DNA of 62,382 bases, filler included, from Basidiobolus ranarum (lineage: Eukaryota), in assembly GCA_040143965.1 (NCBI GenBank). It is 18 parts of 18 records of this genome, joined end to end, with 100 filler letters (N's around TTAATTAATTAA, not from the genome) between each part and the next. Parts side by side here need not be neighbours in the genome. Positions count along the whole stretch, not along the records: positions 34,755 to 38,124 come from JASJQH010002538.1; 17 more parts are not named here. The stretch is one strand, 5' to 3'. The notes under the pieces are model-generated. The model worked only from the letters and a program-made list of their open reading frames with translations. It was not told where the DNA came from and did no database searches. Below, piece after piece: positions 3,380 through 38,124 of this stretch. The stretch's first letter is position 1. Each line of letters begins with the position of its first letter. Both the position numbers and the translations under genes were made by a program.

Positions 3380-3479
3380 NNNNNNNNNNNNNNNNNNNNN
3401 NNNNNNNNNNNNNNNNNNNNNNNTTAATTAATTAANNNNNNNNNNNNNNNNNNNNNNNNNNNNNNNNNNNNNNNNNNNN
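3380..3479. other. Artificial contig spacer (first of 17)
   Basis: 44 N + TTAATTAATTAA (stops in all six frames) + 44 N. The same spacer starts at 6859, 10337, 13814, 17291, 20767, 24241, 27713, 31184, 34655, 38125, 41594, 45062, 48529, 51994, 55458 and 58921. Contig lengths run in non-increasing order from 3379 to 3362. Confidence 0.99.
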
Positions 3480-5728
3480 TATATCAGCATCAATATTTCT
3501 AGAAAACCAAGGAGTTCCATTCCATCAATCATACTGTACCAACATTGCCCCATAAGTAGCCGATTATAGTGGTCGTAATTCCCGCTCTTAAATTCTGCAA
3601 TAATTCTTTCCACTCCCTCAAAATCCTTTACTCGGTGACCAATAAGATTTCGACATATTGCGTTGGCTAAAATCGTGACCTTTTCCGATACCGAATGATT
3701 GTTATTGCTGAAGCTGTAGGAGAGTCCCAACCACCGGTTTACATGTTCCAAATTTTCTAGATATGTCCTGTCCATCTTGTCTGAGTAGTCCCTTGCGCAT
3801 TTCAACGTCTGTTGTAACAATAGTTTGATTGCCACAGATACGCCGACTACAGAGTACACAGCAACTGCACTTATCAGAACAGGTAAAGGAAGCTGCTTTC
3901 CAACCATAGCAATAGTTGCTGATATCACAGCGCTAAGTTCTCCGATAGGAGTAATCCTCTTCAACAGGTTCGCTTTGGATAGATATATGCGGTCTGATGT
4001 AAGAAGAGTAATCACTCTAAGGCTGATACTTTTGGTAAGACTAGTTTGTAGGTGAGATATCTCAGTATGAGCGCTATTTTGGCGGGCCCGATGATAGCTG
4101 TCACAAGAGCCTCCAGGATGGTTTTCCTGCGGTAAATGCTCGGGTAAATGGTTACCACTTTCCGAGTTACTTTTTGCGCTTTCCGAGTCTAAGTTACTGT
4201 CCAGCTTATTCAAGCGATTGGTTGTAGCATTAGGATTGCATATGTGCAAAATATAGGCATCGTAGAGATCTCCCAAATCTTTCGCTATCTTGGCAGAATT
4301 TACGTTTTTAACCATTTCTTCCAGTTTATCCATTATTACTATGAGCCTTGATTTTTTTTCTTGATTCATTCCGTCATACGCCGAATACACGAACGCCAAA
4401 TTCAGTATCTCTGCTATAGACATGCTTCTGACATAACTATTTCTACTCTTCCCACTTTCATCCACAAAAGCGTGGTAATTCATATCTGTATTCTTGCCGA
4501 ACACGGAAACGTATCCAAGAGTTTCGCACCATAACTTTGCATTCTCAGGTACCTGAACATTTTTGAAAACAACAGGGTAGTGACGAGTTGGATGGCTTTC
4601 TGGGCTTATCTCCTTGCCCTGGTAGAAGAATTTGGCGTTATGTAGATTAGATCCTGAGACCGCGATCTTTATAATACGTTTGCCACCAACATTTTCATCA
4701 GATTTAACAACAACATCTGTAACTTTGGCGACTCCCCAGGACGAGTAAGTTATGTCCGGAATAAAGCTTGCTGTTTCCTCGTTTATCAAGTGCGAGTCTC
4801 GAATTTCACATATTGCATCGGAAATCGGACCCCAGCTTCGCATACTGAGGGTATAACTGCTTATATCATGCTTCTGGATATTTGCAGAAGTGATTTTATG
4901 CACTTTGGGGACAACCCATTCCGGTAACAAAGACCATGTGCCACTTGCATTGCTATAGCACTCTCCAATATGATGGAAATTCCGTAGATCATTCCAAAGT
5001 TGGAATGCGCTGACTGCCTTTCGACATATCCCATCGTGCGATCCTTTCATCTCTTGCGGAGCTAGAATGTTGTATACCGCTGTAAGAAGCGCTACAATTG
5101 CCTCTTCCCCGCGTTCAGATATGCAACTAGTTAGGTTTGGTATAATATCCCCATCGTTGTAGAAAGAGGTAAAATTAGTGCGAAAATGATTATCATAATA
5201 TCGTGCGAATGTATCATCACCAATTGGAGGTGTGCCAAAAGTATAAACGTGTATGACATTTGGATCCATTCCAAGTATAGTGAGTACTCGGAGAGCCACA
5301 ACAACAGCAATGGCACCTCCTAAAGAATGTCCCGAGAATACTATCCGCGCCTTATTGTTTGCAGTGTGTTCTAGAAACTCTAAAAAGCCTTCTAAAGGTA
5401 TTTGTAACCCAAGCTCTAAGAAACCGGAGTGTATTCTCCCTTCGAACCCATGCATATGGATACTCTTACGATAGTTGAGATCTCTTAGGATATCGCGTAC
5501 TCTGCTGGTGGCTTTAAAAGACACATACATGCAATTTTCTGAAAATCCAACAATGTATCCATGGTCGCACCTACTGTTGGTTGGCGCAATGCTAGATATA
5601 GAGGTGCCCGAGCTCCTCAGTACTGAAAATACATCCATGGGATCTCTTCCCGAGAGAGAGTTTGCAAGGGAGATAGAGTTATACAAGTCAACAGAATTCA
5701 TGATACAAACATACATCCGCCTGTACAT
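3480..5728 (-). CDS. Class-3 lipase-domain protein with long C-terminal extension (about 750 aa, 3'-truncated), intronless
   Basis: IHSGF, VFSGHSLGGA nucleophile elbow, YTFGTPPIGD, NDGDIIPNL, H..Y (KHDISSY). A hydrophobic segment lies near the truncated end. Confidence 0.85.
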
Positions 5729-21299: not shown

Positions 21300-24240
21300 A
21301 TCGTTATACCATTTGTCATTTGTCTGTAGTCTTTAGCGATTCTATACCACTTCGTAAACTCATTATCCTTATAGTGTCCTCCCAAACCTAACGTTTTGTA
21401 TGACCATACAGTTTGTCACATATCAGCAGTGTATACCTTTTCGTAGACTTTGCTATCAGTGTTTCCCATAGTCTCTAGCACTTTATAAACTCTTCTTTAA
21501 GCGTTATCCGTATTGCTTGGTTCTTGGCACCATGCTTTTGTCTTTTGTCAATAGGTATTTGCATTTTGTAGCATCTGCATTAAATGTTTACCACCGCTTT
21601 GTAGACTCTACTTTAAGTGCTTTCCAAATCCATCGTTTCTTGGCACCATACACTTTGTCACTTATCGGTGGTTTTTAGCATTACATAAACTCTTCCCCAT
21701 ACCCGTCATTTTTTGGCACCCTACCATCTGTCTTTGTCAGTAGTCTTTAGCACTTCGTACACCCAACCTTAAACATATTCTATACCCATCGTTTCCTGGC
21801 ACCGTACTCTTTCTCTTTTTCAGCAGTCTTTAGCGCTTGGTAGACTATCCCTTTGGTGTTTCCCATCAACATATTCTTCGTCATTTATTAGTAGTCCTTG
21901 GGACTTAATAAACTAACTCTACTTTAAGAATTTCGTAATCGCTATATCTCGACACTACACCCTTCGTCACTTGTCAGTTGTATTTGCACTTGATAAAACG
22001 TGCTTTAAGTGTTTTCCGTGCCGGTTGTTTCTTGGCACTATACCCTTCGTCATTTTCAGTAGTCTTTAGCACCTCTTTACCACTTTATAGGCTTTCCTTT
22101 AAGTGTTTTCCATACCCGTTGTTCTTGGCACCATACTCGTCAACATTTGTCAGTGGTCTTTAACTCCCCGTACATTCTCCTTTTAGTATTTCTCATACCG
22201 CTTGTTTCTTGGCTCATACCCTTTGTCATTTGTCGGTAGTCTTTAGCACTTTGTAGACTCTCCTTTAACATCACTGATACCCGAAATCTCTTGACACCAT
22301 ACGCTTAGTTATATGTCATTAGTCTTTAGAGCTTTCTTGAACTCTCCTTTAAGTGATTTCCATACCTGCTGTTTACTTTTACCGTACTCTTTGTCATTTC
22401 TCAGCAGTCTTTGGCATTTGACTCTGCGGGAAGTGATTTCAACACCACTCTTTTCCTGACACCTTACCCTTCGTCCTTTATGAGTTTTCATAGTGGTTGG
22501 ACACTTCTTGGACTCTCATTTAAGTGTTTCCCATACCCAGCATTTCTTGGCATCATATCCTTCATAATTTTTCAGTAGTCTCATGCACTCCGTAGCCTCT
22601 CTTTAAAGTACTTCCCATATCGCTCGTTTCTTGGATTCATACCTTATGATATTTTTCAGTAGTCTCTAGCACTGCGTAAGCCCTCTTTTAAGTGTTTTCC
22701 ATACTGGTCAATTGTTATTACCATACCCTTTGTCACTTGTCAGTAATCTTTAGCACTTTGTTGACTCTCTTGTGAGTGTTTCGCACACCTGCCATTTTTT
22801 GGCGCCATAAGTCAATAATATCTGGATCAAGTCTCGGCTATACCTAATAGTATCACTTGTCTCGTAGCATGTTGCTAGAAAGCCAAGAAATTCTTGTTTG
22901 GTATCTTCTGCATCAATAGCGTAGCAGTTGCGGTACCCGCACTTCAAATCAAACCCTGTTGGTCATCTACCTTCGAACTCAATTGTGTATTTGGATCGTC
23001 GCATTCCAATATCTGCATTCTTTGATGACACTTCGACATATTTTTTGGTTATTGTGCATATTGAACTCTTCTTTAATTGTTTGCCACACCCGTTATTCCT
23101 GTCACCATGCTCATTATCAACTGTCATTAGTCTTTAGCAATTCTTTACCACCTCGTTAACTCATTCCCCTTTAAGTGCCCTCCCAAACCCAACGTTTGTA
23201 TGACCATACAGTTTGTCACATATCAGCAGTGTATAACTATTTGTAGACTTCGCTATCAGTGTTTCCTAAACCTGTCATTTCTTGACACCGTACTCATCAT
23301 CGCTTATCAGTAGTGTCTAGCATTTTATAAACTCTCCTTTAAGTGTTTGCCATACCGGACGTTTGTTATCACCATACCCTTTGTCTTTTGTCAGCAGACT
23401 TACCATACCCTTTGTCACTGGTCAGCAGTCTTTACCACTTCGTAGACTCTTCTTTAAGTGTTTCCTATACCCTTCATTGTTGTCACCATACTCTCAATAA
23501 TTTTTTAGGAGTCTTTAGCATTCCATAAACTCTTCTTGAAGTGTTTCCTATACCGCTTAGTTTTTGGCACCATATTTTCTCTTTTTTCAATAGGTTTTCG
23601 CACTTTGTAGCATCTGTTTTAAATGTTTCCCCGCGCTTTGTGGACTCTACTGTAAGGGCTTTCCATACCCATCGTTTCTTGGCACCATACTCTTTGTCAC
23701 TTATCGGTGGTTTGTAGAACTACATAAACTCTTTTTTAAGTGATTTTCATACTCACTGTTTATTGTCAACAAACCCTTTGTCATTTGTCAGTGGTCTTTA
23801 GCTCTTCGTAGACTGTTCTTCAAACGTTTCCCATATCGCTCGTTTCTCGTCACCATACCCTTCATCATTTGTCAGTGGTCGTTAACACTGTATAAACTTT
23901 TGTTTAAGTGCTTCCCATACCAGTGGTTTCTTGGCACCATACGCTTCATAATTTGTCAGTAGTCTTTATCTACATACCTGCCGTTTCTTGGCACCATTCC
24001 CTTTGGCATTTATCAGTGGTCTTTAGCTGCTCGTAGACTCTACTTTAAGTGTTTCCATACTTGTCATTTCCTGGCACCATACCCTTCATCGCTTGTCAGT
24101 AGCCTTCAGCACTGTCTAAACACTCTTTCAAATGTTTTCTGTACGAGTTGTTTTATTATTACCGTACCCTTCGTCGTTTTCAGTAGTCTTTAGCACATCT
24201 TTACCACTTTATTGGCTTTCCTTTAAATGTTTCCCATACC
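21300..24240. repeat. Degenerate ~84-bp satellite (about 30 units) with ~1.8-2.1 kb higher-order duplication
   Basis: Hand consensus CCATACCCTTCGTCATTTGTCAGTAGTCTTTAGCACTTCGTAGACTCTCCTTTAAGTGTTTCCCATACCCGTCGTTTCTTGGCA. Interrupted by non-repeat DNA at about 22810-23080. Confidence 0.92.
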
Positions 24241-33737: not shown

Positions 33738-34654
33738 TGTGGAAATTAGGTAAATAGCAGCTCATTACTAAATATTGAGCTTATTCAAATTTTGATTTTT
33801 TAGCACTAAACTTTGCTGTTCCAAATTGTGTGTTTGTTGTTCAAATTGATAGAAAAATTATTTAGATCACCCTTACCAATTTTCCCTATTTTCTGCAATC
33901 TTCTCCACATCACCTCAAATTTTCACCCATGCTCATCAGGCATGCTAATTATGATCTAAACACATCTAACAGTTCTCTTACATAGTAAGCTGTTAATAAG
34001 ACATTTGCAATTCAATTGTATTCAAGTATATAATTCACAAATCCAAATATTGTCCAAAGCACTTCAAAATCCCCTAAATACTATTATCAGGTTATGAGCC
34101 CCAAGCTAGCTGTTGAAGGAATACCTACCAGTACTATTACCAACATTTTTGTAACCACAGAGAAGTTTAAAGGTGAAGACTTTCACCTTTGGAAGTTCAA
34201 AATACTAAGGTGCCAGGAGACAAAACCTCTGTTGATTTGTTACAGGTTGAGAAATAGAGCCAAAGAGTCTACCAGTAGCTATCCTGGTCTTGAACAAGAT
34301 GCAGAGGAAAGAACTCTTTGCACTTTGTGTAAATCTCTGAGACTCACAATTGAGATACAAACACTCAGCCAAACATGTCCAAACCACTTTGGAAACACTT
34401 GAGGGACTATAAGAGACTAAAGGTCTGGCTAATTGGCTATCTTTTGGGCAAACATTGTTCTCCATTCAGATAAATTCTGATAATCCTATGCTTAATCATA
34501 TGAACTGGACAAAAACAATGGCAGATCAGCTGACATCCAATGGAGCACCTCTAAGTGAATGTCATTTAGTCATGGCACTACTTGGGAGCCTGCCAGACAA
34601 GTTTGGGAACCTCATAATTGCCCTAGAATCAAGATCAAAGCCATTGACAATGGA
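33738..34654 (+). mobile_element. Ty1/copia 5' end: LTR family B (33738-34089), PBS (34090-34101), degenerate gag
   Basis: TG...CA LTR, GGTTATGAGCCC, EKFKGEDFHLWKFK, LLGSLPDKFGNLIIALE. Confidence 0.9.
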
Positions 34655-34755
34655 NNNNNNNNNNNNNNNNNNNNNNNNNNNNNNNNNNNNNNNNNNNNTT
34701 AATTAATTAANNNNNNNNNNNNNNNNNNNNNNNNNNNNNNNNNNNNNNNNNNNNC

Positions 34756-35528
34756 AAAGACAAGTTTGCCAAGTTTCTTCAAGAAAAAGCCAAAGTCACT
34801 CCAGTCATGAGAGCATATTACTCAAATGAAGATCACCCTGTAGGAGAAGACTGGCGTGCCAGCAGTTTGTTACCTTTTAGAAAAATGAAGCTCTCAAGTT
34901 TCATTAACCCACTACAATCAGACAAACGGCTCGCCTAGAATCTTCGAGAGAAGTTTGGGAATAATCCTACATTAATACTTGGTAACTGGATAGCTGGAAA
35001 TGAAAAGTATCATGAGCTTAATAGAGGTGTCGGAATGAGAAAAATGTTAGCCAAAGAAGGCTTCCAGCAATACCTCCTTGACGAGTTTAAAACTTCAAGT
35101 CTGTGCCCTACTTGCCAGAACGGTGAACTGGAAAAGTTTCAAAAATTACAAAATCCTAGACCATACAAAAGAGAAAGGTATCCTATTGTATATAATATAA
35201 ATCGTCACGGCCTTTTAAGGTAAATATAAGGTAACCGCTTTTAATATGCAAGTAAAAAATTCAAACCTAATTTCTGTTCAGGTGCAAAAACCAACAGTGT
35301 TTAAAGGTCGTGGCCAAAACTACTGAAGATTCTCCCCTTCGTCCTTGGGACTTAGGCTTTGAACTTTAGACATGTCCTTTTTAACTTGTGCTCAAATGGG
35401 GAATGACCCGTTTTGGCAGATTGAAGGAACCTCTCTCCACCGGGTATAAAAGAAAGAGCATCTCATCAGCTAGCAGCAGTCGGCCAACGAAAAAAGCAAA
35501 CAATCCTGTGTGGTTATTGCTACACTAA
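34756..35528 (+). pseudogene. Fanzor (eukaryotic TnpB-like RNA-guided nuclease) C-terminal remnant with one intron (35220-35281)
   Basis: Frame from 34756: PFRKMKLSSFIN..QSDKRLA*NLREKFG..LILGNW..KYHE..RGVGMRKML..GF..YLLDEFKTSSLCPTC..LEKF..NPRPY..HGLLR|CKNQQC..RPWD..LNFRHVL. This is RuvC-II DE.KTS plus CxxC/C..C zinc finger plus a damaged RuvC-III (WNRD). TAG at 34936 and small deletions. Confidence 0.82.
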
Positions 35529-35880
35529 ACATTTGAAACAGAGTAAGTCTTTGAGCGCTTTTTCTTTTGGTATATGTCTAGAAAAAGAATTGCCTTTTGT
35601 TTTGTTTGCTTATCTCCAATTTATTGCAATCGTCCCATTTATTTAATGAAATGTCTATTTGATTTTTTTAATTCTTCTCATTTTCGATTAAAACACTTTA
35701 ATACCGTGAGAGATTGTATAAATACTTGAAAGGAACATTCAACTCATTTTCTAATGAACAAAGAGAATTTATTTTATGAGATGAGAAATGTAGTTCACAG
35801 GTGAAAATCTGTTATGAGTATATGTGAGAGTAAAGAAATACGAGAGATTGGGAATATTAGAAAAAAATTAAAAACGTCCC

Positions 35881-36795
35881 CTAGAAATGCTTATCTATAC
35901 CAGCGCTTACTACACTCTCAGTTGCCTTCCACTGTTGAATCTTCTCTACTCCAAGTTTACCCTTCATGGTTGTACCATCCAATACTTCCTGAAGCTCTTC
36001 GAGACGTGATTCGGCTCTACGTTGATCGATAACTCCACCCATGTCACGAAGATCAGCCAACATATCAGAAATGGTACGAATATACTTCTTAGGTGGAGAC
36101 AGCATAAACACCTTGATTTTGTCTTCCAAATTAGAAGGAGTTACGAAATCACTGGTATGATAATGAAGCTTAAGTGCTTGCTTCAAACGATTTTGGGAGT
36201 GTCTAGCCTCGCGTGAACGATAATGCTTCAAACGAGCCTCTCTTTTAGCGAGTTTCTCGGCATCGAGGTTGGAGTCAGAGGGTTGAATCTCACCCAAAAC
36301 ATGTTCAGGTGCCAGCTCGTCACCAGGTTGGGTTTTACGTGCTTCTTCATATTCCTTTCTTTTAAGTTCTCTCTCCTGACGTTTCTCTTGAAGACGTTGT
36401 TGTTGTCTTTCTTTCTTCACTTTACTAGCGTGAAGACGTTCTTCTTGAACTGTTAAAAGTTCTTTTTTGAATTGCCATCTAAGTTGAGATAATTGTTGCT
36501 TATATCTCTTTTTAGCATCGGTAGGATGAAGCTCTTCCGAAGGTTGACTAGGTAAATCCTTAATAGTAAGAAGTTCTTTCTTAGGAGGTGGAGTTAGATG
36601 ACTACCAGGTGGTGGACGAAAACCAGGTGCGTATCCAGATTTTCCAGGACGATAAGTAGGATCGATAAACAGTTTCTTGGAAGGAATCTCTTTTTCGTCA
36701 TAGCAAGGAGCACTAACGGTAACGAAACTACGTAAAGCAGTGACACCACCACGTACCTGAATAACTTTCTTTGAAAGTTGAGAAATCAAGGACAT
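35881..36795 (-). CDS. Probable mitochondrial small-subunit ribosomal protein mS26 (304 aa)
   Basis: Mitochondrial presequence-like N-terminus, long charged coiled coil, and FVTPSNLEDKI resembling the MRP-S26 FIT.ENLE..I motif. Assignment is by motif recall only. Confidence 0.55.
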   Translation of the reverse strand: MSLISQLSKKVIQVRGGVTALRSFVTVSAPCYDEKEIPSKKLFIDPTYRPGKSGYAPGFRPPPGSHLTPPPKKELLTIKDLPSQPSEELHPTDAKKRYKQQLSQLRWQFKKELLTVQEERLHASKVKKERQQQRLQEKRQERELKRKEYEEARKTQPGDELAPEHVLGEIQPSDSNLDAEKLAKREARLKHYRSREARHSQNRLKQALKLHYHTSDFVTPSNLEDKIKVFMLSPPKKYIRTISDMLADLRDMGGVIDQRRAESRLEELQEVLDGTTMKGKLGVEKIQQWKATESVVSAGIDKHF

Positions 36796-37845
36796 GTTTT
36801 ACAACACTCAAGTTCCAAATATAAAACCGACAACAAGAGAGGGGTTACCAAAGAGGTGCTTCTATCAGAAGTAAACCGATCCTGAGAGAAAATAGAAGTT
36901 TTTCTTGGCTCCGAAAATGAGGAATTATACGAGCCGTTCGATCAGTAAGTATAAATTTTTTAAACCTTGATTCTCGATGTTCCTGATGGGGAGAAAGAAA
37001 CATAAGGGGAGGGGTAGCTTGTTCTCCCTGGAAAAATATCCGTATCCCTAGTTTGCGATAATATAGGTCTATCATTAAGTAATGCATACATTAAAATAAA
37101 ATTTAAAACTATGCATAAATGTTGTTTAAATTCAGCATAAGTAATCCAAAGTCAAAATGATTTTCTGATAGCAGAACCGATCTGTTGGTTCATAGAACCG
37201 AATCTAGAATCGACGTGGATATACCTTTACCATTTATCATTGGTATCATTACTTACCTTGCATCGTTCTTACCGTATAGCTCTATCGGATACCTATCCAT
37301 ACCGATCTTGCTATATTTAGGTTTAGCCAGGTGTCCACTTTTTTAGGTAAGTCAGTCGCAAGATTGCTTTACGGCGAATGATTACCCATAATTAGTAACG
37401 CCATAAAGATTTGTGTATGGCATATGAATCCTATTGCAATTTACCTGATATCAATGATTGATAAGATGAGTGATTAGATTGTAATTAAAGTTTTAGTATA
37501 TACGTATATAGTTCGTAAGATCGAATGCTTTATTATTTAATGTAATATCTTATTGTTTGGATTGTATATGAAATGCTGATTGTTCTGAAACTGAAAGTAC
37601 ACAATTGTTCCACCAACTTAAGTGTACTCGACATCAGTTTCGCGTTAGAACTGTCATGAAGAATTCTTTGGAATATTCATCAAATAAAAAGGTTGAGTAA
37701 ATGAAAGTGAAAAGAAAGGGACGTGAAATGAACGGAAAAATACATCTAATAAAAAAGATTAATGGTGAGCTTATATGTTTCAGGGGTTTTGGCCTCTATC
37801 GAGATTGAAATATGTATAGTAGTAACGGCGTTTTTTGGGAGGCAA

Positions 37846-38124
37846 TTAGTATGATTTGCCGAGAACAGCTGCAAGTAGGGCCATGCGTACGTAGAGACCG
37901 TATCTCATTTGGCGGAAGTAGGCAGCGCGTTGATCGAAGTCTACCTCAGGATCAATTTCGTTAACTCTAGGAAGGGGATGCATGACGATCATGTTTTCCT
38001 TAGCCTTGTTCATAACATTGTTGTTGATAATGTAGGCATCCTTGAGGCGTTCATACTCTTCAAGGTTGTCGAAACGCTCCTTTTGCACTCTGGTGACATA
38101 CAAGACGTCGGTAAGACCAATCAC
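37846..38124 (-). CDS. URA2: Aspartate carbamoyltransferase C-terminus (end of URA2/CAD multifunctional protein), 5'-truncated
   Basis: [48 protein letters not shown]. Confidence 0.92.

Follow-up and report, generated by a model that had tools for sequence, protein, structure and literature searches.

A decayed Fanzor1 gene fragment with a predicted intron on a Basidiobolus ranarum contig

The edge of one short contig from Basidiobolus ranarum raises the question of whether this fungal genome holds a remnant of Fanzor1, the eukaryotic counterpart of TnpB, and, if so, whether the copy could still function and by what route it arrived. The window, which is the whole stretch of 62,382 nucleotides that was analysed, consists of 18 contigs of approximately 3.4 kb each and 17 artificial joins, each formed by 44 N, TTAATTAATTAA and another 44 N. 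Because the joins are artificial, adjacent contigs are unrelated and features are not readable across them. The joins fall at 3424, 6903, 10381 and so on to 58965 of positions 1-62382, and the contig sizes step down by about one base each, from 3379 to approximately 3362.

Two other features of the window were noted in passing. The contig that precedes the one of interest carries a copia-type LTR retrotransposon gag fragment on the plus strand at 34413-34652 (PF14223, E 3.1e-10), which has no link to the Fanzor piece. The contig at 20867-24240 contains diverged tandem repeat arrays with a unit of 83-84 nt (28 codons) at 22074-24192, which probably encode a repeat protein on the minus strand. 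Strand skew is strong in 22001-24000 (GC skew -0.25, AT skew -0.31).

Identity and extent of the fragment

Positions 34756-35528 are almost certainly the decayed 3′ part of a Fanzor1 gene, amounting to roughly its final 240 codons, and represent a transposon pseudogene of a family that is abundant in Mucorales, Rhizopus among them (Table 1). The sequence is filed as a pseudogene of Fanzor1 descent and not as a working member of the family because its RuvC-III motif and its open frame both fail. A preliminary description of this DNA had proposed a Fanzor1 remnant and had named an HMM search against TnpB and Fanzor proteins as a check. When the fragment was compared with all PDB chains using phmmer, PpFz1 from Parasitella parasitica (PDB 9cf0) was matched at E 3.3e-32, with query residues 37-155 aligned to chain residues 1092-1206, and SpuFz1 from Spizellomyces punctatus (PDB 8gkh) was matched at E 1.1e-14. 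The other three PDB matches had E values >1. Exon 2 by itself is too short a query, and yielded only a spurious WD-repeat match in the PDB.

Pfam scans of the fragment detected only the Cas12f1-like TNB family (PF07282), at an E value of 0.1 that is below the cut-off, and full-length homologues likewise exhibited only sub-threshold PF07282. The precomputed label PF26935.1 attached to the homologues was not adopted, as it is absent from the Pfam scans of both the fragment and the full-length homologues. Searches of protein collections identified homologues longer than the fragment (63 of 221 candidates) and homologues of similar length (33 of 43 candidates), and a library of 1.84 billion representatives yielded 1021 matches at E<=1e-3, including 302 at <=1e-10 and 13 at <=1e-30. 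The best named matches are 'hypothetical proteins' of Rhizopus delemar and R. arrhizus, which are 68-73% identical across 99-100% of the query.

After HGLLR, the Rhizopus homologues continue with CKNQQCLKAV...RRLWNRDMAATLNFRHIL...RPERFCRSKKPLSTGSKRK...NNPL. This C-terminal run, CKNQQCLKAV...PLRRLWNRDMAATLNFRHILSSLRANGERPERFCRSKKPLSTGSKRKDMSS...PTKRQNNPL, comprises the second zinc pair, the RuvC-III motif and a basic tail. The window matches this block only if 35220-35281 is removed and two frame shifts are permitted. The contiguous C..C / WNRD / LNFR block of the homologues, together with the matches to solved Fanzor1 proteins, upholds the proposal of a Fanzor1 remnant.

Conserved residues were assigned by using an alignment of the window fragment with 20 homologues (hereafter A1). 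Based on the RuvC/TNB architecture of Fanzor1 (PMC11423790), E110 corresponds to the RuvC-II glutamate, whose catalytic role is described in the same paper, and C117 and C120 correspond to the first zinc pair. The TNB zinc finger, CxxC ... CxxxxC, is complete once the intron is removed, with CPTC supplying the first half and CKNQQC the second. The RuvC-I aspartate block IDPGRRD is present in the homologues (A1 columns 511-523), and its equivalent here would fall upstream of the contig edge at 34755.

The fragment begins at 34756, the first full codon of the contig, and its 5′ side is cut by the contig edge. Its first exon corresponds to residues 339-487 of a 577-aa Rhizopus arrhizus protein (P0004). 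A tblastn search with this protein covers only residues 339-577, the rest being upstream of the edge. From 34756 to 35219/20, the frame reads KDKFAKFLQEKAKVTPVMRAYYSNEDHP...PFRKMKLSSFIN...LA(TAG)NLREKFGNNPTLILGNW...RGVGMRKMLAKEGFQQYLLDEFKTSSLCPTCQNGELEKFQKLQNPRPYKRERYPIVYNINRHGLLR. The order of motifs is PFRKMKLSSFIN, the TAG at 34936-34938, LILGNW, RGVGMRKML, LLDEFKTSSLCPTC, NPRPY and HGLLR, and frame reading located each motif of the preliminary list where it had been placed. That description also took the frame to run from the start of the contig; the frame does run from 34756, but the contig itself begins at 34755 and its edge is an artificial join. No second Fanzor copy was found in the window by tblastn with three full-length homologues or by blastn with 34755-35880.

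Table 1. Coordinates of features on the contig carrying the Fanzor1 fragment, in window positions.
Feature	Position	Strand	Remarks
Contig with Fanzor1 fragment	34755..38124	.	3,370 nt; artificial 44N+TTAATTAATTAA+44N join at either side
Fanzor1 exon fragment	34756..35219	+	Mid RuvC domain and first half of TNB zinc finger
In-frame TAG stop	34936..34938	+	Homologues have a sense codon there (RLAKNLREKFG)
RuvC-II catalytic Glu codon GAG (LLDEF)	35083..35085	+	E110, invariant column of A1
First zinc-finger pair CPTC	35104..35115	+	C117 and C120, both invariant in A1
Predicted intron, spliceosomal-type	35220..35281	+	62 nt, phase 2; GTAAAT donor, CAG acceptor, CTAAT; predicted from sequence and homology
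Decayed last exon	35282..35528	+	Second zinc pair, damaged RuvC-III, +1-frame piece, tail; ends TAA 35526-35528
Second zinc pair CKNQQC	35283-35300	+	Exon 2, after intron removal
Frameshifting net deletion in RuvC-III motif	35346..35361 (about 35349-35359)	+	11 nt by count; W-D-L-G vs RRLWNRDMAATLNF in homologues
Second frameshift, back to first exon-2 frame	35403..35411 (about 35403-35409)	+	tblastn and frame reading
Spacer, Fanzor stop to stop of convergent neighbour	35529..35880	+	352 nt
Neighbour gene, intact, convergent	35881..36798	-	304 aa; mitochondrial ribosomal S26-like, PF14943 weak, E 0.0033
Aspartate carbamoyltransferase (CAD/URA2-type) C-terminal end, off contig edge	37849-38124	-	Chaetomium thermophilum ATCase, E 4.5e-32 (best PDB)

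A predicted intron and the decay of the reading frame

The interruption that splits the zinc finger has the features of a spliceosomal-type intron, including a CTAAT sequence at 35267-35271 that is located ten bases 5′ of the acceptor. If left unspliced, the transcript would carry a TAA directly after HGLLR. Joining 35219 to 35282 keeps the frame, which then reads HGLLRCKNQQCLKVV...RPWD with a junction of HGLLRCKNQQCLKVVAKTTEDSPLRPWD, and the resulting HGLLR-CKNQQC is the exact reading of the Rhizopus and Basidiobolus ranarum gene models. The preliminary description had left it to the homologues to show whether the downstream C..C/NRD block is absent from the family. The C..C block occurs right after HGLLR in 15 of the 20 A1 homologues, and all 15 of these retain the RuvC-III aspartate. 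The remaining five gene models end or diverge at or just before HGLLR, and four further models (P0019, P0028, P0067 and P0074) stop exactly at HGLLR. Such endings are expected where a gene caller misses an intron whose donor makes a stop.

More distant, virus-like relatives were recovered from metagenomes (502 of 595 candidate stretches) and from IMG/VR (338 of 420), and 160 loci were kept and fetched (for example L001 at 4001-4408, L082 and L096), 16 of which were inspected. One open frame runs through HGLL.C..C in all 16, and WNRD is present in 15. A single intronless ORF of approximately 650 aa occupies 14 of the 16 loci. The upstream part is cut by a contig end at L003 and L133, and likewise at L005, and the frame of L104 is closed approximately 184 codons upstream of the match. 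Because the homologues are continuous at this position and the virus-like loci are intronless, the interruption in the fungal copy is predicted to be an inserted intron and not a coding segment. These comparisons agree with the 62-bp GT-AG intron with CTAAT that had been proposed between HGLLR and CKNQQC. Introns in such genes are on record: the capture of introns and nuclear localization signals by Fanzor genes has been published (PMC10530073), and multi-exon Fanzor genes were predicted by Bao and Jurka in 2013 (PMC3627910).

The coding sequence is interrupted by the TAG at 34936-38, by two frameshifts and by internal stops. In exon 2, stops occur at 35367-69, 35382-84 and 35404-06 in the frames that are passed through. 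The RuvC-III WNRD motif is destroyed, such that the window reads RPWDLG followed by a frameshift where homologues read WNRDMAAT. The sequence LNFRHVLFNLCSNGE then occupies the +1 frame at 35359-35403, with LNFRHVL in this frame from 35359. After the second frameshift, the first exon-2 frame resumes with RFGRLKEPLSTGYKRKSISSASSSRPTKKANNPVWLLLH and runs through RFGRLKEPLSTGYKRKS...RPTKKANNPVWLLLH to the TAA at 35526-35528. The segment KRKS...RPTKK lies in this first exon-2 frame and aligns with KRKDMSS..PTKR of the homologues. This basic C-terminal tail is predicted to be NLS-like, and the C-terminal ending of the window copy is shared by gene models P0094 and P0075. The A1 alignment also reveals that nearly invariant residues have been altered (HEP to HEL) and that three codons (YNI) have been inserted before RHGLLR.

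The preliminary description considered this copy dead on the basis of the TAG at 34936 and damage at WNRD. Both lesions are present, as are the LNFRHVL block and the basic tail that it listed, and the second frameshift adds to the damage. A premature TAG, loss of RuvC-III, a second frameshift and changed near-invariant residues indicate that the copy cannot work.

A gene that is truly intact and active could look like this if the stop and frameshifts were sequencing or assembly errors and the 5′ part resided on another contig. The assembly is indeed poor, given that the window is built of contigs of about 3.4 kb, and the break at 34755 reflects where the assembled contig ends, not a biological truncation. 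However, there are four independent lesions in 770 nt in addition to the near-invariant replacements such as HEP to HEL, and the 304-aa ORF on the same contig is unbroken and, along its entire length, matches its Basidiobolus homologue at 83% identity. Because this adjacent gene is intact, the four lesions are unlikely to stem from a local assembly error. Moreover, the relative P0075 from Basidiobolus ranarum is damaged as well, with LLDQF and CPTF in its sequence and the WNRD block missing. We therefore regard an intact, active gene as very unlikely, and genuine decay of a Fanzor1 gene as the reading to be carried forward.

Host lineage and placement among Mucorales copies

The convergent 304-aa neighbour is 83% identical across its full length to K493DRAFT_320275 of Basidiobolus meristosporus, which is its only non-self match, and it looks like a host-lineage marker that assigns the contig to Basidiobolus. 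A search for proteins of near-equal length recovered two Basidiobolus ranarum gene models. The first, P0075 (K7432_007251), is 73% identical over 108 aligned columns and 80% identical over the phmmer stretch. It is annotated as a 'hypothetical protein' and is itself a decayed Fanzor1 tail in which the glutamate is replaced (LLDQF), a zinc cysteine is lost (CPTF) and the WNRD..LNFRH block is missing. It has in common with the window copy a derived tail, KEPLS.GYKRK..SSSRP.KKANNPVWL. The second, P0099, represents an upstream part with 83% identity over 23% of the query. These sequences indicate that the genus Basidiobolus carries decayed copies of this Fanzor1 family. The preliminary description had also taken the copy to imply a spliced Fanzor1 family in this genome; such a family may exist, and the two B. 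ranarum fragments lend it indirect support.

Given that the best protein matches are from Rhizopus and that the fragment sits at a contig end, the piece might instead lie outside a Basidiobolus-like genome, either as contaminating Mucorales DNA or through a chimeric join. Yet it is contiguous, with no intervening N, with the gene that is 83% identical to B. meristosporus, and an assignment to Mucorales DNA was rejected for that reason. No Rhizopus protein exceeds about 75% identity to the fragment, which thus does not come from a sequenced Rhizopus. In addition, its sister in the tree (support 95/90) is a gene model that an independent B. ranarum assembly supplied, and the two have the derived tail in common. 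Contamination or a chimeric join is accordingly an extremely improbable explanation, and we treat the fragment as Basidiobolus DNA.

To place the copy, the window fragment was aligned with named and unnamed homologues and 155 window columns were kept. Rows with <95 filled columns (P0050, P0055, P0057, P0081 and P0093) were dropped, and P0094-P0099 were left out for low coverage. Identity to the window copy reaches 74.8% for the best R. delemar row and 64.3% for the best R. microsporus row, and is 41-57% for Gilbertella, Helicostylum, Pilaira and Rhizomucor. Two trees, a quick one of 86 rows and a careful one of 69 rows, agree on the placement; the careful tree excludes 17 unnamed ena/jgi/lgn rows and retains six virus-like ena/jgi rows as the outgroup. 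In the careful tree, the window copy and the B. ranarum copy form a pair (95/90) that is nested (99/93) in a set of 24 rows from R. delemar, R. arrhizus, R. stolonifer and two long-branched Phycomyces rows. This set is in turn nested (97/95) in a set of 30 rows that includes six from R. microsporus. Constraining all 61 Mucorales rows to a single side of some branch lowers the log-likelihood by 10.34 units with an AU p of 0.029, a value obtained with only 152 columns, for a hypothesis framed after the quick tree, with multi-copy families and with Phycomyces rows that are oddly placed.

The aspartate carbamoyltransferase fragment on the same contig offers a rough yardstick, as it is approximately 66% identical (57/87, counted from the alignment) to the Chaetomium enzyme. 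By this measure, an identity of 75% between a Basidiobolus pseudogene and Rhizopus is high. The B. meristosporus-like host gene, the B. ranarum sister, the nesting in the Rhizopus clade, the higher identity to R. delemar and the AU result tip the balance slightly towards a scenario in which the Fanzor1 transposon came to Basidiobolus horizontally from a Rhizopus-lineage Mucorales fungus, crossing between phyla, and then decayed. As a separate observation, two Phycomyces blakesleeanus proteins (P0045 and P0054) are also placed within the R. delemar/arrhizus clade, where their branches are long, which might reflect a further transfer or a long-branch artefact.

The present copy shows Rhizopus-type Fanzor1 relics to be carried in Basidiobolus genomes, and a full-text search found no literature naming both 'Basidiobolus' and 'Fanzor'. 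Should DNA-level data bear out the nested placement, this would provide a datable transposon transfer between two early-diverging fungal phyla. Such a transfer, if true, bears on the spread of Fanzor elements.

Guide RNA, element end and known relatives

The likely working of an intact ancestor can be drawn from the Fanzor family (PMC11423790, PMC10530073). Fanzor1 is a RuvC/TNB endonuclease that is guided by RNA and borne on the DNA transposons of eukaryotes. Presumably, an intact gene would be transcribed and the short intron between the zinc-finger halves spliced out, and the protein would enter the nucleus via its basic C-terminal tail. There it would bind a guide RNA whose source is the non-coding 3′ end of the element, and the complex would cut guide-matching DNA beside a short motif.

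In characterised Fanzors, the guide RNA derives from a 3′ non-coding region that abuts the right end of the transposon (PMC10530073), and that of PpFz1 is 75 nt in length (PMC11423790). The right end of the present element and any remnant of its guide RNA must reside in 35529-35880 or overlap the end of the ORF. The preliminary description had placed the omega-RNA and the right end at 35400-35660, which would be a reasonable expectation by analogy with these systems, and the searches gave it no backing. Specifically, an Rfam search of the contig at E<=1 found nothing relevant, folding across 35400-35860 in 80- and 120-nt windows gave no signal (MFE z-scores of -1.4 to +2.3), and no meaningful direct, inverted or TIR-like repeats, and no TSD, were found in 34755-36000. 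DNA of relatives from the metagenome and IMG/VR collections is only 30-40% identical and is too distant for alignment of 3′ flanks.

A region inside the ORF, 35300-35439, has MFE z-scores of -2.4 to -2.8, and a similarly damaged copy exists in Basidiobolus ranarum. These features could be taken as signs that the remnant has been co-opted and kept, perhaps because it gives rise to a small RNA or supplies the 3′ UTR or terminator region of a neighbouring transcript. However, such z-scores do not stand out among the 48 windows that were folded, Rfam gives no match, and the reading frame decays as neutral sequence would. The chance of co-option is consequently close to negligible.

The window copy is instead an ordinary relic of a known family, as Mucorales Fanzor1, spliced and NLS-bearing Fanzors and the structure of a close relative are all published. 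Mucorales Fanzor1 has been on record since 2013 (PMC3627910), and the structure is described in PMC11423790. Among known systems, the bacterial TnpB proteins (IS200/IS605 and IS607) and Cas12f resemble the window copy in having a RuvC domain and a zinc ribbon (TNB), as reflected in the weak PF07282 match. They differ in being prokaryotic and in lacking spliceosomal introns and an NLS tail, and their similarity to the window copy is below the Pfam threshold. Across residues 2-155, the Fanzor1-like ORFs from giant-virus MAGs and from freshwater metagenomes show 30-40% identity and keep the same HGLL.C..C / WNRD / NIYKI order. In contrast to the window copy, these are single, intronless ORFs of approximately 650 aa, and they form a separate, long-branched outgroup in trees. 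SpuFz1 (PDB 8gkh) belongs to the same family and has the same motif order (E 1.1e-14), but it is far more distant and its match ends before HGLLR.

The best solved relative is PpFz1 (PDB 9cf0-9cf3; Xu et al. 2024, PMC11423790), which aligns through RuvC-II and the TNB zinc finger to HGLLR. It is like the window copy in its motif order and in having a host among the early-diverging fungi. However, PpFz1 is catalytically active and works with a guide RNA of 75 nt (PMC11423790), whereas the window copy is a pseudogene for which no RNA was detected. In PpFz1, the two stretches that match are also separated by approximately 105 additional residues (chain 986-1092), which are lacking from the window copy and from the Rhizopus proteins P0002-P0009. 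These residues correspond in position to the FRI insertion of approximately 100 aa described in PMC11423790, which reports the FRI in Parasitella and Rhizopus only. In our alignment, an insertion of about 100 residues at the FRI position (A1 columns 619-728) occurs in P0048, P0051 and P0053, which are a Mucor saturninus protein and two unnamed proteins, and neither the R. delemar/arrhizus group nor the window copy has it.

The closest resemblance is to Fanzor1 of Rhizopus, for which Bao and Jurka (2013, PMC3627910) described families ROr-1 to ROr-4. The R. delemar/arrhizus models P0002-P0014 are 68-75% identical to the window copy over 151 columns. They have in common with it the CKNQQC...WNRD...LNFRH...KRK block and the ...NNP.WL.LH end, and the window copy nests in their clade. 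The hosts differ, in that Rhizopus belongs to the Mucorales whereas the window copy resides in a Basidiobolus-like host from another fungal phylum.
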